Part shown: piece by piece, positions 7,697 through 36,474 of the stretch
Numbering within the stretch: position 1 is the first letter of the stretch
How the letters are laid out: every line of letters starts with the position of its first letter
DNA from: Bacteroidota bacterium
Lineage (GTDB): Bacteria; Bacteroidota; Ignavibacteria; SZUA-365
Reading direction: 5' to 3'
Length of the DNA stretch: 63,216 nt
Assembly (NCBI GenBank): GCA_035914695.1
Contig: JAMIQH010000153.1
Location: 1 to 63,216, forward strand
Program-made: the position numbers and the translations under genes
The notes under the pieces: generated by a model
Databases searched by the model: none
Told to the model about the DNA's origin: nothing
The model's input: the letters and a program-made list of their open reading frames with translations, nothing else

Positions 7697-10539
7697 AGCG
7701 ATACCGATACTCCTGCGCGAATCGTGCGCGGCGAGAGGTAGCGCGCGGGATTGTAAGGATAGGGATTGAGCGGCGCCTGCAAGTCGGGATACAGTGGATC
7801 GTTCCATCCGGTGGGCGTGGGATCGCCGTATTCATAGGCCTTGCCGGTGACGGGGTTGATGATGGTGGGATTGAGATTGTCGAAGAGATTCATCACCTCG
7901 AGCGAAATTCCCATATCCACACCACCGAGCTGAAAACGCCGCTCGATGTTCAGGTCGGCGGTGAACCACGACTCGCCCAGCGCGCCGTAAATGTTGTCGC
8001 GGTCGCGGTCGTAAATCGGACGTCCGCTCACCGGATCGTAGCCCAGCAACAACTGCGGGGTGTAGCGCTTGCCGGATTGCCAGAACAGGCGCAGGTACAC
8101 GCTCAGATCTTCAAAGACGCCGATGCCCAGGGGATCCTTGCCGCGGGGAATGTACACGCTGCCCGACAGCGAGGCCTGCAGCGGCCGGTCCCACACGAGA
8201 TAGGTTTCGGCGATGCTTTCCTCGAGATCGCCGCGTTGCACCAGAGCGCCGTCGTCGGCCGAGCTGCTTTTTCCCGTGGCAATGGAATAGGCGATGCTGG
8301 CCGTGCCGCGGAACCACTGCCCGATGCGCTTCTTGTATTCCACCTCCACGCCGCGGGTGCGGGCATAGTCCTGATTGACGTAGGTGATGTACGAACCACC
8401 GGAAAAACGCGCACTGCTGATCTTGGCCGATCGCGTGCTCACGTAATCGAAAATGTCCTTGTAATACGCGGTGAGCGTCAGCACATCGTCTTCGGTGAAC
8501 TGGTTGCGCAGGCCGAGTTCGTAGGCGACAGTGGTCTCGGGATCCAGATCGGGATTGCCGAATTTCTGGAAGGTGGATTTCGCGCTCACGGGATTGAGCT
8601 TCGCGTACACGAACTGCGGCCGCGGGCGCTTGCTGAAATGCCCGTAGGAGAAAAACAGCGTTTGATTGTCCGAAATCGGGTGTGAAATGCCGAGGCGCGG
8701 ACTGATGCGCGCCTTGAAGCGGCGGCCAAAGAGCCCGAAGGTGTTGTCCATGTAGGACTGCCGCAACTCGTCGGGGATGGTCACGACGTCGGGATTGTTC
8801 ACCGCGTCGTCCACGAATTTTCCCGGCATCCACCAATCGAGGCGGAGACCCACATTCAGAATCATGCCGCTGAAATTGATGTTGTTCTGCGCGTACATGG
8901 CGCCGTAGGCGGGATGCACGGTGTAAATGTCGTTGTTCAATCCCAGATCGCCGAGCCAGGGTTTGTAAATGTCGATCACCTGCATTTCACCGAAGGTGCC
9001 CTCCAGGCCCGCCTTGAATTTACTGCGCTCGCTGAGACTGCTGGTGTAATCGGCCTTGATGGTGGTGTTCACCACGTGATGATCATGCCAGGTGAAGCCG
9101 TTGCCCGTGTCCCAGAAACCGTCGCCCGGAATCACCCCGATGCTGTCGCGCTCGAGGTTGTAGTACTCCACGGGAAAGGTGATCAAATCCTTCGGCTCCT
9201 TGTACTCGCGCCAGTCCTTGCCATTCGCATCGGCGCGGAGGTTGGTGTAGAAACGGCTGAGCTTGATTTCGTAAAACGAACTGTTGCTCACCGTATGCGT
9301 CCAACTCAGCGTGTGGAATATCGTGTTGTGCGTGTAGGTGTTGGCCTGATCGAGAATGTTTTGAAATTCGTACTGATAGCCGGGACTCGGTTCCACATAC
9401 TCCAGATTTGTCTGCAACGACTGCGAATTCTGATTGATGCTCACGGACTGATTGTAGGAGTAACGCAGCTTCATCGTGGGTGAAAATGCCCAGGTGACTT
9501 TGCCCAGCCAGAACCAGTTGTTGTCCTGCCGCGGCGCGAAGCGCGTGCCGCCGAAGGTGCTGCTGTACAATTGACGCGCTGTGACCTCGCGGTACTCGCC
9601 CGTGGGCTGTCCGTTGCGGATCACCGGCGCGAGCCGTGTGAATGCATCGGAAAGGCCGGCGTAGAAATTACCGAACACGGAGATTTTTCCCGGGATGCCA
9701 ATGCCGAACGCTGGCAGCAGATACGTGCTTATCGGTTCGGGACCGCCGAGGGATCCCTCGGTGATGTCGGTGTTCCAATTGGAACGCTCGTCCCTGTTGT
9801 AGCCCAGATTGTCGCGCTTGTAGCCGAAGGTGATGGCGTAGCGGTCGCTGGCCTCGCGCGTGGTGACGTTCACGATACCGGAGGTGGCCTGTCCGTATTC
9901 GGCGTTGAAGCCGCCGGTGATCACTTCCAGTTCCTGAATGGATGCGGCGCTGAGTTGCAGGCCGAAGCCCGTGCCCGCAAGCGGATCCTGCACGGAGATG
10001 CCGTCGAGCAAGTAGGCGTTTTCATGCGTGCGCCCGCCGCGGATATGAATGCCCTCGTCGGACTTCACCACGCCGGTTTGCTGCGACACCACGTCTTTCA
10101 CGTTCTCAATGACCGCAACCTTGATGTCCTCGGCGGTGACGGTGCGCGAGCTGGAGGTTTGCTCGATGTCCAGCAGCGGCTTCTGCCCGATAATGACCAC
10201 TTCCTCGTCGAGGGCGAGAATGGTTTCCTCGAGTTTGAAATTCAGTTCCACCCGCTGTCCGGCGCGTACCGCCACACCTGTTTGTTGCACCTTTTTGTAG
10301 CCGATGAGGGAAATGACCAGCGTGTATTCGCCGGGATTCATATCGCGAATGGTGAATTTCCCGTTGATGTCGGTGGCGGCGCCGTAGTAGGTTCCTTTTA
10401 CCATCACGTTCACACCCACCAGTGTTTCGCCGCTGCGCGCATCGGTGATGACGCCGGTGATGGTGGCCTTTTGCTGCGCCGTCGCGGTGCCGAGGAAGAG
10501 GAGCAGCAGCAGGGGGAGAAGTACGCGTTGCCTGTTCAT
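7693..10539 (-). CDS. TonB-dependent receptor with N-terminal carboxypeptidase-regulatory-like domain
   Basis: ORF 7693..10740. Start taken at MNRQRVLLPLLLLLFLGTATAQQ (ATG 10539). ITGVITDARSGETLVGVNVMVKG...GKFTIRDMNPGEYTLVISLIGYK is a CarboxypepD_reg-like domain, followed by plug and barrel-like sequence. Confidence 0.85.
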   Translation of the reverse strand: MNRQRVLLPLLLLLFLGTATAQQKATITGVITDARSGETLVGVNVMVKGTYYGAATDINGKFTIRDMNPGEYTLVISLIGYKKVQQTGVAVRAGQRVELNFKLEETILALDEEVVIIGQKPLLDIEQTSSSRTVTAEDIKVAVIENVKDVVSQQTGVVKSDEGIHIRGGRTHENAYLLDGISVQDPLAGTGFGLQLSAASIQELEVITGGFNAEYGQATSGIVNVTTREASDRYAITFGYKRDNLGYNRDERSNWNTDITEGSLGGPEPISTYLLPAFGIGIPGKISVFGNFYAGLSDAFTRLAPVIRNGQPTGEYREVTARQLYSSTFGGTRFAPRQDNNWFWLGKVTWAFSPTMKLRYSYNQSVSINQNSQSLQTNLEYVEPSPGYQYEFQNILDQANTYTHNTIFHTLSWTHTVSNSSFYEIKLSRFYTNLRADANGKDWREYKEPKDLITFPVEYYNLERDSIGVIPGDGFWDTGNGFTWHDHHVVNTTIKADYTSSLSERSKFKAGLEGTFGEMQVIDIYKPWLGDLGLNNDIYTVHPAYGAMYAQNNINFSGMILNVGLRLDWWMPGKFVDDAVNNPDVVTIPDELRQSYMDNTFGLFGRRFKARISPRLGISHPISDNQTLFFSYGHFSKRPRPQFVYAKLNPVSAKSTFQKFGNPDLDPETTVAYELGLRNQFTEDDVLTLTAYYKDIFDYVSTRSAKISSARFSGGSYITYVNQDYARTRGVEVEYKKRIGQWFRGTASIAYSIATGKSSSADDGALVQRGDLEESIAETYLVWDRPLQASLSGSVYIPRGKDPLGIGVFEDLSVYLRLFWQSGKRYTPQLLLGYDPVSGRPIYDRDRDNIYGALGESWFTADLNIERRFQLGGVDMGISLEVMNLFDNLNPTIINPVTGKAYEYGDPTPTGWNDPLYPDLQAPLNPYPYNPARYLSPRTIRAGVSVSL

Positions 10540-25653: not shown

Positions 25654-25680
25654 TCACTGTGTGAGTCCATCCGTGTGAAT

Positions 25681-25855
25681 ATCACAGTGCGAACGGCAGG
25701 GTTTTAAAACCACAGATTGCACAGATTTCACACAGATTAGCACGGATGGATCGTGGAAGGCTGCGGGGATCGGAGCGATACATAACAGCCGGGGAGAAAT
25801 CGCACGCTCGTTGTCGACAATCCAGCGTCTTATGCACCCTTGCGTCTTCGCGTTG
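25681..25855. repeat. dispersed intergenic repeat, family CACAGAT (copy R1)
   Basis: gttttaaaaccacagattgcacagatttcacacagattagcacggatggatcgtggaagg...gcgtcttatgcacccttgcgtc. Colinear with copies at 27385-27530 and 36205-36403. Confidence 0.85.
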
Positions 25856-26704: not shown

Positions 26705-26847
26705 CTTGTCCGCATACTATTGGCGAATCGGGTAATATTGTGCGCAATATATCGCTTCCTTTGCAGGGGAGCAAACAGAGCATCAAGACATAGTTTCAAA
26801 ACCACAGATAGCACAGATATCACACAGATTAGCACAGATGGATCGTG
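26705..26847. repeat. 143-bp direct repeat, left copy (contains a CACAGAT module; copy R2)
   Basis: cttgtccgcatactattggcgaatcgggtaatattgtgcgcaatatatcgcttc...gtttcaaaaccacagatagcacagatatcacacagattagcacagatggatcgtg. Near-identical to 36120-36262. Confidence 0.9.
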
Positions 26848-26892
26848 GAAATCCACGATGATCCGATGAAGAAGCCACGAAGTGTCCTTGTG

Positions 26893-27324: not shown

Positions 27325-27384
27325 GGGGGCCTCTCTGAATTGGAATGCTGTGCTACAGAGCGCAGTATGCGTGTGAACGACAAC

Positions 27385-27530
27385 GTTTCAAAACCAGGGT
27401 GCGAACAATGTAGTTTCAAAACCACAGTGCGAACAATGTAGTTTCAAAACCACAGATAGCACAGATATCACACAGATTAGCACAGATGGATCGTGGAAGG
27501 GTGCGGGGAGCGGAGCGAATACCTGTCTCT
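27385..27530. repeat. dispersed intergenic repeat, family CACAGAT (copy R3), with internal 28-bp duplication
   Basis: gtttcaaaacc starts at 27385, 27413 and 27441. The last is followed by cacagatagcacagatatcacacagattagcacagatggatcgtggaagggtgcgggg, as in R1. Confidence 0.85.
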
Positions 27531-27561: not shown

Positions 27562-30500
27562 TTACACCGCTCCGCCCACACCTTTGAATTTCTCCACGAA
27601 TGCGGTGATTTTCTGGAAGACGGTCTGCTTCGTGATCAAGTATTGCGGGTTCAGCGGGCTCATGCGGGGCAGGATGGCGTTGAGTTCGGTGCCGCTGTCG
27701 CTCGCGAATTCGCGTTTTAATGAGGCGGTGATATAGCGCCTGGCAGCTTCCGCATTCAGGTTCTCGGCGGTGATCAACTCTTGCGCTTCCCGCTGCTGTT
27801 CGGCCCGGGCAAAGGTGAAAAAGGCATCAATCACACTGGCCTTGTCGCCAATGTTATCGAGATCGGTCTGGTTGATGAAATCGACGAGCAGGCTTTCCTT
27901 GGCTCGGTTGCCAAGACTGGCGCGAATGACGCGTCGTACTTCGTCAACCAGCCCCGACTTGGTCCTGATGTTCTTGTTGTGCTCGAAGATCAGTTCCAAT
28001 ATGTAGTCGAGATTGATTTCCTGAGACTTCAGGAGGTCGACCTCGAATACCACGTCATCCCAGTCGATGCTGGATGTATCCTTGTCATCGGAGGATTTCT
28101 GGCGGCGCAGCCATTCGCGCACGTCGTTGTAGGTGGAGCGGTAATCCTGGATGATTCGTTCCGACGGTATCGTTATCGCCTGCAGTTCGGCAAGGTCTTC
28201 ATCGCTCAGATAATGCTGCGTCTTGAATGCCTCCACCGCCGCAGGGTCGTTCATGTCAACGCTTTGAAGTGCTTTCAGACTGGCAAATTCATCGAAATGC
28301 TGTAGCACATTCTCGATGCGTAAATATTCTCCGAAGAGCTTCACAAACGCCTTCTTGTCCGCTTCCTTCTCGATGGCGGTGGGATCGGGAAAGCGCTGCT
28401 CCAACTCCCGCACCACATCCATATAACCGCGCCGCGCTTCACCGGTCAGTACATCGGTAAAGCCGTCCATGTATTCCTTGTAGCTCTTCTCCAGCACCAC
28501 GTTCTTTGTGTTCCTGTCGCCAAACAATGTGATGGCGTCGATGGTGGCTTGCTCGAGGTCACGGAAGGTGACGATGTTGCCAAAGGTTTTCGTGGCGTCA
28601 AAAATGCGGTTGGTGCGCGAATATGCCTGCAGAAGGCCGTGGTAACGCAGGTTTTTGTCGACGAACAAGGTGTTCAGCGCCGGCGCATCAAAGCCGGTCA
28701 GGAACATGCCCACCACGATCAGCAGGTCGATTTCCTTGGCCTTCACCTGCTTGGCGAGATCACGGTAGTAATTCTGGAAGCCGTTGCTGTCCACGCTGAA
28801 ATTGGTTTTGAACAGCGTGTTGTAATCCGCTATGGCCGCGCTCAAGAACTCCTTGGCGCTGCTGTCCATGGCGGAGACTTCGAAACTTTCGTCCTGTATG
28901 TCGCCGACAGCATCCTGTTCCTCGTTCGCGGCAAACGAGAAGATGGTGGCTACCTTCAACGGCTTGTCGCTGCCCTTCTGCAATTCCCGGAAGGACTCGT
29001 AGTACAGCTTGGCGGCGTCGACGCTGCTGACCGCGAACATGGCATTGAACCCTTGATTACCAGCCTGGAGGCGGCGTGTTTTCTGTCGATAGTGTTTCAG
29101 GATGTACTGTGTGATTTCGCGTATGCGGTCGGGGTGCAACAGCGCCTGCTTGTTTTCCGCCGCGCTGAGCGTTTTCTCGTTGGACTCGCTCTCAATCGCC
29201 TTGAACTGTGGACGTACATCGTTGTAGTCCACCTTGAACTTCAGCACCTTCTCATCGCGTATGGCGTCGGTGATCACGTAGGAATGAAGTTCGTTGCCAA
29301 ACACGCTGGCTGTGGTTTCGGCGCCCAACGCGTTCTGCGGGAAAATGGGTGTACCGGTGAAGCCGAACTGATAGAACTTCTTGAACTTCTTTTTGAGGTT
29401 TCTCTGCGCTTCGCCAAACTGGCTGCGGTGACATTCATCAAAAATGAACACCACCTGCTTGCCGTAAATGGGCAGATCGCCTTCGCTCTTCATCAGGTTG
29501 TTGAGCTTCTGGATGGTGGTGACGATGATCTTGTTGTCGTCCTTGTCCAGATTGCGCTTGAGACCGGCGGTGCTGTCCGAACCATTGACGCTGTCCGGTG
29601 AGAATCGCTGGTATTCCTTCATGGTTTGGTAATCAAGATCCTTGCGGTCGACCACGAAAAACACTTTGTCGATGAAGTCCAGCTCGGTGGCCACACGCGC
29701 CGCCTTGAAGCTGGTCAGGGTTTTGCCCGAACCGGTGGTGTGCCAGATATAACCGCCGCTTTCCGTTTTGCTCCAGTTTTTCGTCTGCCATGCGCTGTTG
29801 ATTTTCCACAGAATGCGCTCGGTGGCGGCAATCTGATAGGGACGCATGACCAACAGGGTGTTGCTGACATCGAATACCGAATAGTGCAGCAGTACGCTGA
29901 GCAGCGTCCTTTTCTGGAAAAAGGTGGCGGTGAAGTCCTTCAGGTCCTTGATCAGCGAGTTATCCGATTTCGCCCAATTCATGGTGAAGTCGAAGCTGTT
30001 CTTGCCGCGCTGCGTGGTGTTGGCGAAATACCGACTGTCGGTGCCGTTGGAGATCACGAACAGTTGCAGATACTTGAACAGGGAATGCTCGCTGTTGAAG
30101 CTCTCCTTGCTGTAGCGATGCACCTGATTGAAGGCCTCACGAATCGCCACGCCGCGTTTTTTCAGTTCCACCTGCACAAGAGGCAGACCGTTGACAAGAA
30201 TCGTCACGTCGTAGCGATTGGCGTGGCTGCCCGTCTGCTCGAACTGCTTGATCACCTGCAGCCGGTTTCGGGCAATGTTCTTCTTGTCCAGCAGATAGAT
30301 GTTCTGTATATGGCCATCGTCAAAGACAAAGTCGTGAATGTAATCGTCGTGAATCTTGCGGGTTTTTTCCACGATGCCATCACTGGGCTTGTCCAGCCAG
30401 GTTTCCACAAAGCGCAGCCACTCGCCGTCGGAGAATTGCATCTTGTTCAGCGTCTGCAACGCGTTGCGCACATTGGCCAGCAACTTTTCCGGCGTGTTGA

Positions 30501-30660
30501 GGTCGGGCGCGTATTCGTAGCCCTGATTCTTCAAGTCCTGAATGAACTCCCGCTCCAGATCCGATTCGCTCTGGTAACGCTCGTTGGCTTTCCATTCCCT
30601 GACGTATTTGTCCAGGACAATGAAGTGTTTCGATTCGGCAATGGCCTTGTAGTCGCTCAT
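27562..30660 (-). CDS. hsdR: type I restriction endonuclease subunit R
   Basis: ORF 1032 aa. HTTGSGKT Walker A and [13 protein letters not shown] box. N-terminal nuclease-region and C-terminal sequences are typical of HsdR. Confidence 0.95.
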
Positions 30661-30760
30661 TCTTCGGGGTCCTTGCTTTGCAGCTCGTTTTTAGAGTCCG
30701 GTCCAAATCGGCTTCGATGCGTTGCTGCCTGTTGAACGTTTCACCTCAGTCAGCGGCGTT

Positions 30761-31111
30761 TCATGCAGTCGGCATTCGGCGGATTGAGCCGTAATCCAAC
30801 GGGATCACCGCGTCCAGGTTGTAGTACTTGACCTGCTGGGTCTGGGTGAGGCCTACCACGGCGCCGTGCTCAGTGCTTGTTTCCAAAATGGAAACAACCA
30901 CTTCTTCCACCAATTCGCCACTGTCGAAGATGTTCTTCAGATGCCTGGAAATGGCCGGGACGCCCACACCAAACAACTCCGCCATGCGCTTTTGGGTCAG
31001 CCAGATGCTCTCATTGCTGAGCAGGACTTCGACTTTGACTGCGCCGTTGGGCGCGGTGTGGAGCAGGAATTCGGTGCTTTGATCGCGTAATGTGATATTT
31101 GGTCGGGGCAT
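30761..31111 (-). pseudogene. rhuM-family (virulence protein RhuM-like) gene remnant, frameshifted and truncated
   Basis: MPRPNITLRDQSTEFLLHTAPNGAVKVEVLLSNESIWLTQKRMAELFGVGVPAISRHLKNIF...KYYNLDAVI matches the N-terminal third of RhuM-type proteins, which are usually about 330 aa. Near 30803 the expected ISVGYRLN continues in another frame (..VGLRLNP..) and stops. Only about 100 bp remain before hsdR. Confidence 0.65.
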
Positions 31112-31305
31112 AGTTCGATCCCTCAATTTTGAGTATCCAGGGATTGTTTCCCCATAGGTGTGGTACTGGTAGTTGCTAGATTCAACTGATTGGTGACATG
31201 AACTATTTCACTCTCGTCTTGCTTCAGATTGTCTCAAATATCCATGTTTCTGGGTAGGAATGATCGTCAATGCACATTGACTCAAATTGCGGGAGTATGG
31301 CGTAA

Positions 31306-32538
31306 TCATCCAGTTATTACTTCCGGTTGCCTGAAATGATAGGTCTTGATCAAATGGTCTACCAATTCGCTTAGTCTAGCTTTGTCATTGTCCTCGATTT
31401 CAGCCATTTCTTCGCCTGCATGGGCTGAGTGACTGGATAGGTTTAGGAGTCTGTTTCCAAATGGGTCAGGGTTCCCATTGCTGGTTTGTGGAAGAAGAGC
31501 CGACCAGTTGTTGTAGCCTAGGAACGTAGCCATCTTCTCCAAAATGTTTCGTGTGAAATTAAAATGGTACTTCCTGATTTGCCCATTATTAAGTGCAACT
31601 TGGAGTTCGGATAAGAGAAACAGGTGGTACGAGAATGGCGAGTCGGTTGGCTGTGTTGCCAGATTAAACAGACCGTCTTCATTTTTTTCTAATCGATATT
31701 TCTGAAAAGCTTTTTTTGGGCTATATGTCTTCGTCCGTGTGCCATCCTTCTGTGTTTTGTAGGCCGGGTTGCTAAACTCGTTGCAGAGGATATTGTAAAA
31801 AAGCGGGCTGTGTGTTGTGATTACAAAATTAAGCTTGGAATTGCTCGACTTAACCAGCGTCGCCAGGTCGATGGCTAGGTCAATTAAATGATTGTCGTCG
31901 AGCGAACTAACGGGGTCGTCAATAAACACGTATTCTAGAAGATCAAAGTCGTTGCTTCCGTGTTCATTCTTGTCGGATTCCTCAAGAACAGACACCACCT
32001 CTTGAATAAGTGTAAAAAAAATGCTCCATATAAAACTCCTCTCCTCGCTTTTAGATACTTTTAAATTGCCTGTTCGTTCAGTGCCAGTGTCAAGAGAGAA
32101 AATTACTTCCGGGTAGGTTTTTTCACCTGTCCTCTTCGTACCTACAACTACATCTTTCTCTTGAAATCGTGCAGATAGTTTGTCGTTTGTATAACGCTGA
32201 AATGTGTTAACGATATCTATTTCGCCGCGTACACGCAAAATCCAGTCAGTGAATGAATTCGGTTGGATTTTTAATTTTGGCTCGATGTCTTGCTCCAAGT
32301 CGTTATCCCAGTAGAACAAGTCTTCGGTAAATGCGTTGTAATAGAGGATGATGTTGCGTGACGACTGGGGAAGATCGGCTGCTTCATCGCCTTCTCCACT
32401 ATCGGCTTTGGAGGCTATCAGTCGCTTGAACTCTCGTGAGAGACGAGTTTTTCCCACGCCATTGAAGGCGTAGATTATCTGCACTTTCTTGTTGGCATCT
32501 TTTAGCTGTTGTGCGATTTCCGGTAGCGTCTTGCCCAT
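31306..32538 (-). CDS. AAA_13-type ABC-like ATPase, PrrC-like anticodon nuclease candidate
   Basis: ORF 410 aa. Walker A AFNGVGKT, signature-like VSKSEER, Walker B/D-loop YVFIDDPVSSLD and H-loop ITTHS. The C-terminal region has RNILE (RxxxE) and SSHS about 36 residues later. The gene sits between hsdS and hsdR as prrC does in E. coli and starts 1 nt after the hsdS stop. It is the most AT-rich gene in the window. Confidence 0.65.
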   Translation of the reverse strand: MGKTLPEIAQQLKDANKKVQIIYAFNGVGKTRLSREFKRLIASKADSGEGDEAADLPQSSRNIILYYNAFTEDLFYWDNDLEQDIEPKLKIQPNSFTDWILRVRGEIDIVNTFQRYTNDKLSARFQEKDVVVGTKRTGEKTYPEVIFSLDTGTERTGNLKVSKSEERSFIWSIFFTLIQEVVSVLEESDKNEHGSNDFDLLEYVFIDDPVSSLDDNHLIDLAIDLATLVKSSNSKLNFVITTHSPLFYNILCNEFSNPAYKTQKDGTRTKTYSPKKAFQKYRLEKNEDGLFNLATQPTDSPFSYHLFLLSELQVALNNGQIRKYHFNFTRNILEKMATFLGYNNWSALLPQTSNGNPDPFGNRLLNLSSHSAHAGEEMAEIEDNDKARLSELVDHLIKTYHFRQPEVITG

Positions 32539-32539
32539 G

Positions 32540-33787
32540 TTATGTCGTCTCCTCTTCAGGTTTTGGGAAGTTGAACAGCATATCGCGGTAATACTCGTAT
32601 TGCTTTTTGCGCAGTGCGATTTCGCGGGGCAAGCCCTCGGTGAGGGAGTTGGTCAGAGCGTCGAACGTGTCGAGTATGGCGACGATGCGGGCTTGTTCGG
32701 CGAGGGATTTCTGAGGGTCATAGGCATATGGAATCGGGAGCTTGAAGCTCTTTATGATGCTTGAGTTGAGGTCGCCTCTGGGACCCTGTCCTAGTGACTT
32801 AATGTTTTCATAATTAAAACTCACCCAATGAAAAACATAGCGAGATAACGCCTTGGCGCTGTCTACTTCCAGGCAGCCACAGTGCTGATTGGTTGTTAAA
32901 GGAATTTTATTGATCGCTGACCTGCCTGCCGTGGCGCCAGAGATCGCAATTATTACGCAATTCGCAGGAATCCACTTTGCTGCCGACTGCTCCAGGGCTG
33001 CCTGAGTTATTTTTACTTCAGTTCTCTCGATATCGGAAAACTTGACCTCTTGTGTTCTTAGCCATGGAATATCGCCTCCTTCATAGTACTTCGGCTCTCC
33101 GGCTGTAGGGGTTCCGCCTGAATGCCATTTTTTTGTAACATCCCCCAGCGTTTTCCAGGCTACATCTCCTAATTCAAAACTCAACAACCGGTCGCGATAG
33201 TAATTGTATTGTTTTTTACGAGCGGTCAGCTCGGCGGTCAGCTCGGCGGTCAGCTCGGCGGTCAGCTCGGTAAAGGCGTCAAGAATGCGGACGATTTCGG
33301 CCTGGATTTCGAGGGATTTTTTGGGGTTCTCGGGGCAGGGGATGGGGATTCCAAACTTTTCGGTATCAGGGATTGCAATTTGCGGCATTTGCATCTTGCC
33401 GCCAATACTCTGGAAATGGGGTTCGTACAGTTTTAGAAAATGGTAAACATACTTGATATGGATAGCCTCGTTGCTTGAATGGTACGACCACATTTCATTC
33501 TTGTGTGAGAACGGTATGTCGCAATATTCAAATTCAATTACGCCACGAGATTTAACAATAATCGAAGCTTCGCAATTTATATCCTTGGCTGGTATGTCGT
33601 CGAAATCAACAAAGGCGACGGTTTTACCCCCCGCGAAGATTTTTACCGGAGCGCCATCTTTATGAAGCTCTTTCATCTGACCTGCGGTGATTTTTGTGCC
33701 TTTGGTTCGAACAAGCATCTCACCGAGTGGCTTCCATTGAACCTCGACCCCGTCCAACAGCTTCGCCAGAAAAGGAAGTTGACTCAC
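32540..33787 (-). CDS. hsdS: type I restriction-modification specificity subunit S (type IC-like)
   Basis: ORF 415 aa. Two TRDs separated by the central conserved region LDAFTELTAELTAELTAELTARKKQYNYYRDRLLSF. The C-terminal conserved region is LDTFDALTNSLTEGLPREIALRKKQYEYYRDMLFNF. GTG start lies 2 nt after the fic stop. Confidence 0.9.
   Translation of the reverse strand: MSQLPFLAKLLDGVEVQWKPLGEMLVRTKGTKITAGQMKELHKDGAPVKIFAGGKTVAFVDFDDIPAKDINCEASIIVKSRGVIEFEYCDIPFSHKNEMWSYHSSNEAIHIKYVYHFLKLYEPHFQSIGGKMQMPQIAIPDTEKFGIPIPCPENPKKSLEIQAEIVRILDAFTELTAELTAELTAELTARKKQYNYYRDRLLSFELGDVAWKTLGDVTKKWHSGGTPTAGEPKYYEGGDIPWLRTQEVKFSDIERTEVKITQAALEQSAAKWIPANCVIIAISGATAGRSAINKIPLTTNQHCGCLEVDSAKALSRYVFHWVSFNYENIKSLGQGPRGDLNSSIIKSFKLPIPYAYDPQKSLAEQARIVAILDTFDALTNSLTEGLPREIALRKKQYEYYRDMLFNFPKPEEETT
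33222..33269. repeat. 4 perfect tandem copies of the 12-bp unit gcggtcagctcg inside hsdS (encodes the TAEL/ELTA repeat)
   Basis: Directly visible at 33222-33233, 33234-33245, 33246-33257 and 33258-33269. Translated on the minus strand this gives ELTAELTAELTAELTA. Confidence 0.95.
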
Positions 33788-33789
33788 GG

Positions 33790-34395
33790 TTACAACTCCT
33801 CGGTCTTGAATTCGCTGTAGCCTTCGTAGAAATAACTCACGTCGATGCCTTTCATGAACAGGGCGCGGTCGTGGATGCGGTCGGTGAGGGCTTGCTTGAG
33901 CAGGAATTTGATTTCCAGGTCTTTCACCGGACTGCGCCGCATGGCGGAAAGATATTCCTCTTTATCGACGTGATTCCAGTCCACCACCTGCCTGAGTTCC
34001 TTTTTCAGCATGCAATCCAGCCAGATGCGGGTGGCCCGTCCGTTGCCTTCGCGGAAAGGATGGGCGACATTCATTTCCACATATTTTTCCACGATTTGCT
34101 CGAAGTTGCCTTGCGGCATGGCGTCGATATGTTTGAGCGAAGCGTGCAGATACATGACCGGGGCGAAGCGGAAATCACCTTTGGAGATATTCACGTCGCG
34201 GACAATTCCGGCGAAGTGGTAAATCTCGCCAAAAAGATAGGCATGGATGAACGCCAGCCCGGAAAATGTACCCACGTCCACCTTGTGGATGTCGCCCGAG
34301 TCGAAAAGCTGTCTGGCTTTTTGCTTGCTGATTCTTTCCTCGGCCTTGGCCAGCGCGATCTGCTCCGTGATGTTGAGCTTGTTTTCCGGAATCAT
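33790..34395 (-). CDS. fic: Fic-domain protein (AMP-transferase type), class III-like with C-terminal inhibitory motif
   Basis: ORF 201 aa. [12 protein letters not shown] is the canonical Fic motif HxFx(D/E)GNGRxxR. The C-terminal SYFYEG fits the inhibitory (S/T)xxxE(G/N) motif. Its ATG overlaps the hsdM stop (ATGA). Confidence 0.9.
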
Positions 34396-35942
34396 GTGGA
34401 CGCTCCTTCAATCTCGGCTACGATGGCGTCGATTTCCGCGCGCAGCTTGTCGATGTTGGCGACGGTGGTTTTCAGTTCGGCATTCAGTTGGGCAATGTCC
34501 ACGGTCTCACGGGTATCCCGGGCCTCCACATAGCTGCTCACCGACAGATTGTAGTCGTTGGCGGCGATGGCCTCGAAAGGAATGGATTGAGCAAAGTGAT
34601 CCACGTTCGCCTTGCTGTCGAACACGGCGAGGATGCGTTCGATGTGCTCGTCCAGCAGCACATTATTGTTGGTTTCCTTCTTGAACAGACCGCTGGCGTC
34701 GATGAACTGCGTGGTGGTGTCGCTTTTATGTTTGGACAGCACAAGGATATTCACTGCGATGGTGGTGCCATAAAACAGATTGGACGCCAGGGAAATCACC
34801 GTTTCGATGTAGTTGTTGTCGATCAGATATTGGCGGATTTTCTGCTCGGCGCCTCCACGGTAGAAAATGCCGGGGAAGCAGACGATGGCCGCGCGGCCTT
34901 TGCCGGAAAGATAGTGGAGCGCATGCAGCACGAAGGCGAAATCGGCTTTGGATTTGGGCGCGAGCACACCCGCCGGGGCGAAGCGTTCGTCGTTGATCAG
35001 CGTCGGGTCGTCGCTGCCTATCCACTTCACCGAGTAGGGCGGATTGGACACGATGGCGTCGAAGGGTTTGTCCTCGGCGAAATGCGGCTCCGTCAGCGTG
35101 TTGCCCAACTGGATGTTGAATTTGTCGTAGTTGATGTTGTGCAAGAACATGTTCATCCGCGCCAGGTTGTAGGTGGTGTGGTTGATTTCTTGCCCGAAGA
35201 AGCCGTCATCAATCAGATGGTCGTCAAAATGCTTTTTGGCCTGCAGCAGCAAGGAGCCCGAGCCGCAGGCGGGGTCGTAAATCTTGTTGACACCGCTTTG
35301 CGTGTGCATGGCGAGTCGTGCGATCAGCTTGGACACATGCTGCGGCGTGAAGAATTCGCCGCCCGATTTGCCCGCGTTGGCGGCATAGTTGGAGATGAGG
35401 AACTCGTAGGCGTCGCCGAACAGATCGATGTGGCTCGACCCGAAGTCGCCGAAGTCCAGTTCGGCCACGCCTTTGAGCACGGCGGCCAGGCGGGTGTTCT
35501 TGTCCTTGACGGTATTGCCCAGGCGGTTGCTGGTGGTATCGAAGTCGGCGAACAGGCCTTTGATGTCCTGCTCCGACGGGTAGCCGTTGGCGGAAGCTTC
35601 GATGGCGGCGAAAATCGTTGCCAGGTCGGTGTTCAAGCGTTCGTTGCTGTTGGCGTTGGCAGCCACTCTGGCAAAGTGCTGGCTGGGATAGATGAAATAG
35701 CCCTTGGTCTTGATGGCATCATCTTTGATCTCCGGCGTGATGACATTGTCGGCCATCTGAGCATAGCGGATGTTTTCGTCACCGCATTCGAAATACTCCG
35801 CGAAGTTTTCGCTGATGAAGCGATAGAACAGCGCACCGAGCACGTATTGCTTGAAATCCCAGCCATCCACCGCACCGCGGACATCGTTGGCGATTTGCCA
35901 GATCCGGCGTTGCAATTCGGCTCGTTGTTGGCTGCTGGTCAC
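34392..35942 (-). CDS. hsdM: type I restriction-modification DNA methyltransferase subunit M
   Basis: ORF 34392..35972. [10 protein letters not shown] (motif I) and SNPPYS (motif IV) are present. Likely start is GTG at 35942 ([23 protein letters not shown]), with GAGGAGAA upstream; the TTG at 35972 is less likely. Confidence 0.95.
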
Positions 35943-36119
35943 GTGGTTTTCTCCTCGGGACGTGGGTACCAAAGGTACCCGGTTTTTCTATGAAATCAGA
36001 ACTCCCTCATCTCGCACGGGATTGATCCATCAACGGACGCTGGGTGTACGCCTACGCGCAGCAGGTTGCCGGGGTGAAGAGTTCCCACTGTCGCAGCTCC
36101 GCGCCTTGTCTCACTTCCG

Positions 36120-36262
36120 CTTGTCCGCATACTATTGGCGAATCGGGTAATATTGTGCGCAATATATCGCTTCGGCTGCAGGGGTGCAAGCAGAGTATCA
36201 AGATATAGTTTCAAAACCACAGATAGCACAGATATCACACAGATTAGCACAGATGGATCGTG
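36120..36262. repeat. 143-bp direct repeat, right copy (copy R4)
   Basis: Near-identical to 26705-26847, with a handful of substitutions, mostly in the segment cttc[ct]ttt/ggctgcagggg[at]gcaa[ag]cagag[ct]atcaaga[ct]at. Confidence 0.9.
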
Positions 36263-36403
36263 CAAGGCGGCGAGGTTCGGAGTGAATGGATAACGCTCGG
36301 GGGAGAGATCGCACGCACGCTGTCGACGATGTAGCGTCTTATGCATCCTTGCGCCTCTGCGTTATGCGCCCTTGCGTTATGCGCCCTTGCGTTATGCGAC
36401 CTA
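36263..36403. repeat. tail of repeat R4, including a 15-bp tandem repeat (gcgttatgcgccctt, about 3 copies)
   Basis: gatcgcacgcacgctgtcgacgatgtagcgtcttatgcatccttgcgcc parallels R1 (25795-25850). It is followed by gcgttatgcgcccttgcgttatgcgcccttgcgttatgcga at 36359-36400. A related pair, cccttgcgttacgcgcccttgcgttacg, is at 53460-53487. Confidence 0.85.
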
Positions 36404-36474
36404 GCGCTCTGCCTCCAAGGTCGAGTCGGAGCGCCGCATTGTATTCGTACAGGCAGGTTTCCGGCATGCCGCTG

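Follow-up and report, generated by a model that had tools for sequence, protein, structure and literature searches.

Does a chromosome of the Bacteroidota carry a genuine PrrC, the anticodon nuclease known from the Escherichia coli prr locus, and can the protein be expected to work there as it does in E. coli? The question is raised by contig JAMIQH010000153.1 of assembly GCA_035914695.1 (Ignavibacteria, SZUA-365), the whole 63,216 nucleotides of which are called the window here. On its minus strand, an open reading frame (ORF) of 410 amino acids, designated prrC below, lies inside a type I restriction-modification (R-M) operon. Inspection of the letters had led to the original prediction of a PrrC-like anticodon nuclease candidate in a genome of the Fibrobacteres-Chlorobi-Bacteroidetes (FCB) type, and this reading is supported by a profile search, by the alignment to E. 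coli PrrC (EcoPrrC), by the conserved catalytic triad and by the type IC operon that surrounds the gene. Membership of the ORF in the PrrC family can be regarded as practically certain from the sequence comparisons. We are confident, to a lesser degree, of the complete picture, in which the ORF encodes an anticodon nuclease of the PrrC family and belongs to an EcoprrI-like type IC operon on a Bacteroidota/FCB chromosome. By analogy with EcoPrrC, it also appears likely that the protein would function at present as a latent anticodon nuclease. The gene is an ordinary member of a well-known family and does not represent a new kind of system.

Family membership is indicated by several independent comparisons. 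The PrrC profile of PADLOC (PDLC02360) covers residues 3-406 of the window protein, that is nearly its full length, with 436 bits and an E-value of 2e-131, whereas the other models of ABC-type (ATP-binding cassette) defence ATPases or AAA_13 proteins in PADLOC reach at most 45 bits. The search for Pfam AAA_13 (PF13166), which had been proposed as a check, gives a match above the gathering score (E = 1.5e-14, residues 203-391) that includes the nuclease region. In BLASTP, the protein is 46% identical to the E. coli PrrC reference described below and colinear with it from Met1 to the C-terminus (E = 2e-125). E-values of this order exclude a spurious alignment to EcoPrrC. A collection of 5.8 billion proteins contains more than 8000 homologues, several of which bear the name 'anticodon nuclease'; the best non-self match, P0002 from Proteobacteria bacterium ST_bin11, is 73% identical. 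No NCBIfam model matches the protein, and a sequence search of the PDB returned a weak similarity to the Rad50 D-loop (E = 0.03) and no PrrC or RloC structure. An identical PrrC protein is encoded by an intact ORF in a separately assembled metagenome contig (L002). The ORF and all the short motifs on which the original prediction was built are present, namely NGVGKT (residues 26-31), VSKSEER (161-167), FIDDPVSSLD (205-214), ITTHS (240-244), RNILE (330-334), and SSHS (368-371). The distance between the last two had been given as 35 residues and is 33 when counted.

As a stand-in for EcoPrrC, we used a 396-amino acid E. coli 'anticodon nuclease' encoded between hsdS and hsdR on plasmid NZ_CP116245 (L001, positions 7902-9092). 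It carries K46, K171, D222, H251, D287, Y294, R320, E324, and H356 at their published positions (PMC1484252). Since this numbering is that of Blanga-Kanfi et al. (PMC1484252), the reference is usable as EcoPrrC, and the triad R320, E324, and H356, which the original prediction had cited, proves correct both in the reference and in that study. The reference locus itself (NZ_CP116245, 71160-87360) is found on a 93-kb plasmid beside phd/doc, terminase, and late promoter-activating protein genes; this plasmid looks like a P1-like phage-plasmid carrying EcoprrI and PrrC. Residues were compared in an alignment of 61 homologues from Proteobacteria, Bacteroidota, Chloroflexota, Firmicutes, Planctomycetota, Campylobacterota, Verrucomicrobiota, and other phyla, and in larger alignments of 199 sequences for conserved columns and of 195 sequences scored at the position of Lys245.

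Toxicity of EcoPrrC depends on 33 essential residues (Meineke et al., 2010, PMC3025547, Table 1), and the window protein has the same amino acid at 30 of them, among which are all those of Walker A, Walker B, the D-loop, and the H-loop and, in the nuclease domain, the counterparts of D276, H295, H315, R320, N321, E324, R349, N352, and H356. In the nucleoside triphosphatase (NTPase) domain, EcoPrrC residues K46/T47/R48, K168/K171, D215/D216, S219 to H225, and T250/H251 are all retained. The three mismatches are H297 (F307 in the window protein), K299 (L309), and K245 (N237). F307 and L309 are the majority states in the family, and the toxic Streptococcus PrrC, SmuPrrC, does not conserve H297 and K299 either (PMC3025547). 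The third mismatch is discussed below.

The nuclease domain carries the strongest residue-level evidence. In the alignment to E. coli PrrC, which the original prediction had recommended, the C-terminal domain aligns with that of EcoPrrC and R330, E334, and H370 fall on the triad R320, E324, and H356. The three residues are kept in 61/61 homologues, and R363, H305, and H325 are likewise invariant. More generally, the equivalents of D276, H295, H315, N321, R349, and N352 are invariant or nearly so across the many phyla sampled. Forty residues separate R330 from H370, as compared with 36 between R320 and H356 in EcoPrrC. PrrC and RloC have been placed in the HEPN superfamily on the basis of an Rx4-6H motif (Anantharaman et al., 2013, PMC3710099). 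This active-site motif is present in the window protein as Rx6H (R363-LLNLSS-H370), aligned with R349 to H356 of EcoPrrC. With the HEPN ribonucleases (RNases) described in R-M operons (PMC3710099), the window PrrC shares the Rx6H motif, predicted C-terminal helices, and linkage to an R-M system, and the multi-pronged defence logic proposed for these operons fits the locus.

Predicted structures and architecture bear on another possible identity, that of an RloC-type protein or other AAA_13 ATPase which would sense DNA damage, excise the wobble nucleotide, and act independently of an R-M system. Like PrrC, RloC associates an ABC-ATPase N-domain with a homologous C-terminal anticodon nuclease domain, and it shares the Arg-Glu-His triad as well as R349, N352, and H295 (PMC3025547). 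Besides, Pfam points to the broad AAA_13 family alone, and the AAA_13 models of PADLOC system PDC-S06 match weakly. However, what defines RloC is a Rad50-like insert with a coiled coil and a zinc hook; the enzyme excises the wobble nucleotide, and its gene seldom lies with R-M genes (PMC3458546). The traits considered were a CxxC insert in the ATPase domain, a length about twice that of PrrC, and a usual lack of R-M linkage (PMC3458546). The window protein is at odds with each of them: it has 410 residues, a single cysteine, and no CxxC zinc hook, its AlphaFold2 model has no long coiled-coil insert, and its gene forms part of an R-M operon, unlike a typical RloC. Because of these features, and in view of the gap between the PrrC profile and the other AAA_13 models, an RloC-type protein is excluded for practical purposes. 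The whole-protein AlphaFold2 model, built on a 55-sequence alignment, has a mean predicted local distance difference test score (pLDDT) of 70.9, and Foldseek comparison of this model with the PDB retrieves the ATPase heads of Rad50, SMC, ABC-transporter, and retron proteins alone, which is consistent with the predicted assignment of the N-domain. In a separate model of the C-domain (residues 247-410, pLDDT 73.6), the helices bearing the catalytic residues (304-318, 323-340, 360-368, and 383-400) come after a small beta subdomain.

The genetic setting is that of prr. On the minus strand, the operon reads hsdM-fic-hsdS-prrC-(rhuM remnant)-hsdR. The R-M system is of type IC, as had been proposed, and orthologous to EcoprrI, because HsdR has an EcoR124_C domain (PF12008, E = 6.9e-70), HsdS contains TAEL repeats, and identity to the E. 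coli prr-linked subunits is high (82% for HsdM and 77% for HsdR). A single nucleotide separates the hsdS stop codon from the prrC start codon (TAA-C-ATG), exactly as in the E. coli locus, and this spacing suggests translational coupling. The hsdR gene follows 646 nucleotides downstream of prrC, the rhuM remnant being located in the interval. Thus, the position between hsdS and hsdR stands as originally described, but the match to prr is not exact, since fic and a 366-nucleotide rhuM remnant are also embedded in the operon. The fic gene is intact and overlaps hsdM by 4 nucleotides; its product has the Fic active-site motif, matches NF046029 (305.9 bits) and the PADLOC candidate system PDC-S04, and it ends with SYFYEG, corresponding to the SxxxEG auto-inhibitory motif. 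Compared with the 346-amino acid RhuM of locus L003, the remnant retains some 110 codons of the N-terminal part and, out of frame, some 28 of the C-terminal end, and about 210 codons are deleted. By this comparison, the window rhuM copy is an internal-deletion pseudogene. No terminator-like site was found on the minus strand 3' of prrC, and a scan for sigma-70 promoters and terminators gave nothing above the shuffled expectation.

In type IC HsdS subunits, TAEL repeats determine the length of the spacer in the recognition sequence (PMC3874165). The window hsdS has three TAEL units. In contrast, the 7-kb contig L002, otherwise 99.8% identical, has two; over 7089 nucleotides, the two sequences differ by 2 mismatches and one 12-nucleotide gap. 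A change between two and three units is the classical switch of spacer length that distinguishes EcoR124I from EcoR124II among type IC enzymes. Therefore, the population seems to carry two R-M specificities.

Comparison with other loci places the operon in a recurrent arrangement. Eighty related genomic loci were fetched, and the six operon proteins were mapped onto these and onto two other loci. The order hsdS-prrC-hsdR was found in 81/81 loci, the window's own copy being left out, and a constant linkage of prrC to an R-M locus has been reported previously (PMC3458546). About ten related loci have a full-length rhuM between prrC and hsdR, and five other prrC loci share the fic gene at its position between hsdM and hsdS. 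The complete order hsdM-fic-hsdS-prrC-rhuM-hsdR is found in Serratia microhaemolytica (L071), whose HsdS is 83% identical to that of the window. R-M operons in which PrrC is accompanied by RhuM-like and Fic/Doc genes have been described before (PMC3710099), so that the three-toxin layout is already known.

The closest characterized system is E. coli prr (prrA/hsdM-prrB/hsdS-prrC-prrD/hsdR), where PrrC accompanies the type IC enzyme EcoprrI and has the same two-domain architecture as the window protein. The differences are limited. The window protein does not have the 16-residue segment that precedes Walker A in EcoPrrC, and it has insertions of 13 and 20 residues that are common to most family members. 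It is atypical at positions 164 and 237, and the recognition peptide called LARP is partly conserved. At the level of the locus, the window operon has fic and the rhuM remnant in addition, prrC and hsdR do not overlap, the host belongs to the Bacteroidota/FCB group, and the activity is a predicted one. The PrrC homologues of Proteobacteria, Planctomycetota, Bacteroidota, and other phyla that carry the annotation 'anticodon nuclease' or 'AAA family ATPase' have the same length, the same insertions, and the LARP variant QPxDSPFSY. Relative to these uncharacterized proteins, the window locus differs by its truncated rhuM and the window protein by the substitutions of G164 and P123, which are unique to it.

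On the model of EcoPrrC (PMC1484252, PMC2610378, PMC3874165, PMC3025547), the following scheme may be envisaged. The window PrrC would be produced together with HsdM, HsdS, and HsdR and would stay latent as long as it is bound to the R-M complex. Perturbation of this complex by a phage anti-restriction factor would activate it. The ABC-type N-domains would form head-to-tail dimers, with hydrolysis of GTP and binding of dTTP, and this switch would unmask the metal-independent RNase of the C-terminal domain. There, R330 would stabilise the transition state, E334 and H370 would act as general base and general acid, respectively, and R363, N366, H305, and H325 may assist catalysis. Nicking of a tRNA anticodon loop would leave a 2',3'-cyclic phosphate; translation would then stop and the infection would abort.

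How the operon reached its present host and site may be considered from the neighbouring sequences. That the host is of the FCB type is supported. A neighbouring 1746-amino acid protein ends with a type IX secretion system (T9SS) type A sorting domain (TIGR04183, 35.1 bits for a cutoff of 23), and NCBI gives a syntenic sister contig the label Bacteroidota. The same label is borne by the 161-kb contig that encodes the closest HsdR (93% identity). The sister contigs (L090/L091) are 87-92% identical to the window in nucleotide sequence over the flanking housekeeping genes, hsdM, fic, hsdR, and the DUF1801 and methyltransferase genes. At the chromosomal site that corresponds to 26.9-36.3 kb of the window, they have the order ykuD ... 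hsdM-fic-hsdS-rhuM remnant-hsdR-DUF1801-methyltransferase-AlaDH. The same operon at the same site, with 87-90% nucleotide identity, indicates that the R-M operon is older than the split of the two lineages. The recognition domains of the sister hsdS differ from those of the window, its rhuM deletion is larger, and four extra genes are found between ykuD and hsdM, one of them encoding a TIR-domain protein (PycTIR/PDC-S35-like). What differs between the sister operons is prrC together with the variable regions of hsdS, and the defence site behaves as a variable hot spot. Further away, proteins of Rhodocyclales, Stutzerimonas, and other Proteobacteria share 89-90% identity with HsdR, which makes transfer of the operon across phyla evident. 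Across phyla, HsdM and HsdR are 75-90% identical, as compared with 51-73% for PrrC, and recombination within the conserved hsdM and hsdR arms could exchange the hsdS-prrC part that they enclose.

Base composition is less informative than it had seemed. The G+C content of prrC is 0.436, as compared with 0.62 approximately in the 25-kb flanks on each side and 0.54-0.56 in hsdR and hsdM, and it had been taken as an argument for recent horizontal acquisition. However, prrC is lower in G+C than hsdM and hsdR in 68 of the 69 related loci that have both (mean difference -0.058) and is on average about 0.10 below the flanks of these loci. Because a low G+C content is a family-wide trait of prrC, it does not by itself indicate a recent transfer. 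The presence of the operon at the corresponding site of the sister also softens this argument. Like prrC, hsdS is systematically lower in G+C than the flanking hsdM and hsdR (69 loci, L001-L082). The 180-nucleotide spacer 3' of prrC has no nucleotide match in the 81 related loci and gives no direction for a gain or a loss of prrC. A tRNA-linked island was also considered; it is unsupported, the window containing no tRNA genes and no Rfam families.

Several observations weigh against the presence of a standard, fully working PrrC. At the structural level, Foldseek comparison of the C-domain model with the PDB gives no significant match (best E = 0.57, HEPN toxins at E-values of 3-4), so that the HEPN fold is not confirmed for the window PrrC. 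In the ABC signature, SKGE has become SKSE; the glycine replaced by S164 is present in 198/198 other homologues, as is the proline replaced in P123A. A third near-invariant site shows R193H, and no other homologue has a histidine at the corresponding position. At the position of Lys245, the window protein has Asn237, K or R being found there in 186/195 homologues; in EcoPrrC, K245A and K245Q abolish toxicity and K245R does not (PMC3025547). Over the 151 columns with at least 90% consensus in the 199-sequence alignment, the window protein departs at 9, for a median of 3, which ranks it 191 of 199, and all nine departures are in the N-domain. The sister locus has no prrC, its hsdS being followed by the rhuM remnant after 13 nucleotides. 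A neighbouring rhuM reduced by deletion and a sister devoid of prrC show that decay and turnover affect this locus.

Owing to these NTPase-domain substitutions and to the evident turnover of the locus, the main rival explanation is that of a true PrrC homologue which would be inactive or attenuated, a decaying passenger with a broken NTPase switch whose role in second-line defence would be lost. We consider it improbable. The prrC ORF is complete, neither a frameshift nor a stop codon interrupts it, and the spacing to hsdS is kept. All the nuclease essentials listed above and 21 of the 22 N-domain essentials are intact, and the distribution of the departures between the N- and C-domains is not significantly biased (Fisher p = 0.11). 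Asparagine at the Lys245 position occurs in 8/195 sequences, namely the window protein, its identical L002 copy, and six independent homologues from Pseudomonas, Variovorax, Methyloversatilis, Moraxellaceae, and others; its recurrence in at least these six suggests a rare natural variant and not an obvious lesion. Moreover, a lysine is present two residues upstream of N237 (SKLNF for SDLKF). The same substitutions might also be imagined to make the protein a natural regulatory variant of PrrC, neither standard nor decaying. Separately, prrC and the recognition domains of hsdS might form a module swapped by homologous recombination between the hsdM and hsdR arms, which are very highly conserved (about 89-90% amino acid identity across phyla). 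To these two ideas we give little credence. If they were true, the regulatory variant might show weaker or GTP-independent activation, or a lower basal toxicity, and the swappable module would explain the sister with the same operon at the same site and no prrC. A family member with an intact nuclease centre, latent in its R-M complex, remains the preferred interpretation.

Granted an active nuclease, the identity of its substrate is a distinct issue. The counterpart of the LARP of EcoPrrC is QPTDS--PFSY, in which 5/11 positions are identical and 2 residues are deleted, so that the peptide departs from the canonical LARP; this also counts against a standard PrrC. It should be reminded that the LARP defines the tRNA-Lys-specific subset alone and not membership in the PrrC family. 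The target is probably tRNA-Lys(UUU), by analogy with EcoPrrC, but confidence in this target is lowered because the LARP is only partly conserved. The same divergence, in a form of the peptide that is the commonest, indeed the majority one, among the homologues sampled in the 61-sequence alignment, favours another view, in which an active PrrC-family RNase would cut a tRNA other than tRNA-Lys(UUU) or would read a different wobble modification. Bacteroidota may modify the tRNA wobble base in a way different from E. coli, which would also favour this view. Although it deserves some consideration, this hypothesis appears doubtful. D299 (D287 in EcoPrrC), S300, F302, S303, Y304 (Y294), and H305 are conserved, which speaks against a non-Lys target. 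The PrrC literature consulted offers no demonstrated case of a PrrC with such a target. Furthermore, SmuPrrC, with 3/11 LARP residues, is still toxic in yeast, a host in which tRNA-Lys(UUU) is implicated as the target of EcoPrrC (PMC3025547).

Table 1. Positions in the window of prrC, of its motifs, of the other operon genes, and of repeats.
Feature	Positions	Strand	Description
prrC	31306..32538	minus	ATG start, 410 aa, sole long ORF there; predicted N-terminal ABC-type NTPase domain to about residue 255, then C-terminal anticodon nuclease/HEPN-type domain
Walker A/P-loop AFNGVGKT	32446..32469	minus	K30, T31 = EcoPrrC K46, T47; both invariant in 61/61
ABC signature (C-loop) KVSKSEE	32041..32061	minus	K160, K163 = K168, K171; S164 in place of Gly
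Walker B/D-loop YVFIDDPVSSLDDNH	31888..31932	minus	D207, D208, S211, S212, D214, D215, N216, H217 = D215, D216, S219, S220, D222, D223, N224, H225
N237, then H-loop ITTHS	31807..31830	minus	N237 at Lys245 position; T242, H243 = T250, H251
QPTDSPFSYH	31624..31653	minus	counterpart of EcoPrrC 284-KYGDSNKSFSY-294 (LARP), plus H305 (= H295)
RNILE	31537..31551	minus	R330, N331, E334 = catalytic R320, N321, E324 (PMC1484252)
RLLNLSSH	31429..31452	minus	R363, N366, H370 = R349, N352, H356; Rx6H HEPN-type motif
hsdM	34392-35972	minus	type I methyltransferase
fic	33790-34395	minus	201 aa, NmFic-type class III Fic adenylyltransferase, between hsdM and hsdS
hsdS	32540-33787	minus	415 aa, type IC specificity subunit
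TAEL repeat	33222..33269		inside hsdS; 12-nt tandem repeat, three TAEL units
rhuM-like remnant	30664..31126	minus	pseudogene; ATG 31111, stop 30761, out-of-frame C-terminal tail
hsdR	27562-30660	minus	1032 aa, type IC restriction subunit
Dispersed repeat copies	25711-25755, 26803-26847, 27451-27495, 36218-36262	plus	CACAGAT iterations
Extended repeat copies	25673-25854, 26705-26870, 27371-27520, 36120-36410		
28-nt triple tandem repeat	27371-27454		beside third dispersed-repeat copy
15-nt tandem repeat TGCGCCCTTGCGTTA	36350-36409		about 4 copies; beside fourth dispersed-repeat copy, upstream of hsdM

Around the operon, the window also contains a lineage-specific dispersed repeat made of CACAGAT iterations, all four copies of which are in the operon region (Table 1). 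Three cassettes of low G+C content lie between them: the R-M/prrC operon and the genes for a class I methyltransferase and a DUF1801 protein. Over 162 nucleotides, copies 2 and 4 share 91% identity. In related metagenome contigs, the repeat occupies ordinary intergenic sites beside atp, clpB, and amt genes. Its interpretation as an integron attC or an island att site was considered and rejected: there is no stable hairpin (z = +1.2), the iterations are direct, the sites elsewhere are ordinary intergenic ones, and no integrase was found among the ORFs scanned. The repeat resembles more closely an element of the repetitive extragenic palindromic (REP) or miniature inverted-repeat transposable element (MITE) type.

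The features that set this PrrC apart are only mildly unusual: a unique substitution in the ABC signature, an asparagine at the Lys245 position, and sister operons with and without prrC. The finding opens no long-standing question. Its practical value is one of annotation, the protein being nameless in the public sources checked and its close homologues being called 'anticodon nuclease' or 'AAA family ATPase'. The natural pair of sister genomes, of which one has prrC in the R-M operon and the other has the same operon devoid of it, is of modest, specialist use; together with the natural variant at the signature glycine and at Lys245, it could serve to test how the NTPase gates the nuclease. 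For the family as a whole, the window adds one well-supported PrrC to thousands of members, several of them in Bacteroidota, and confirms that an arrangement of the prr type, with the order hsdS-prrC-hsdR in a type IC operon and often with Fic and RhuM toxins, crosses phyla essentially unchanged.

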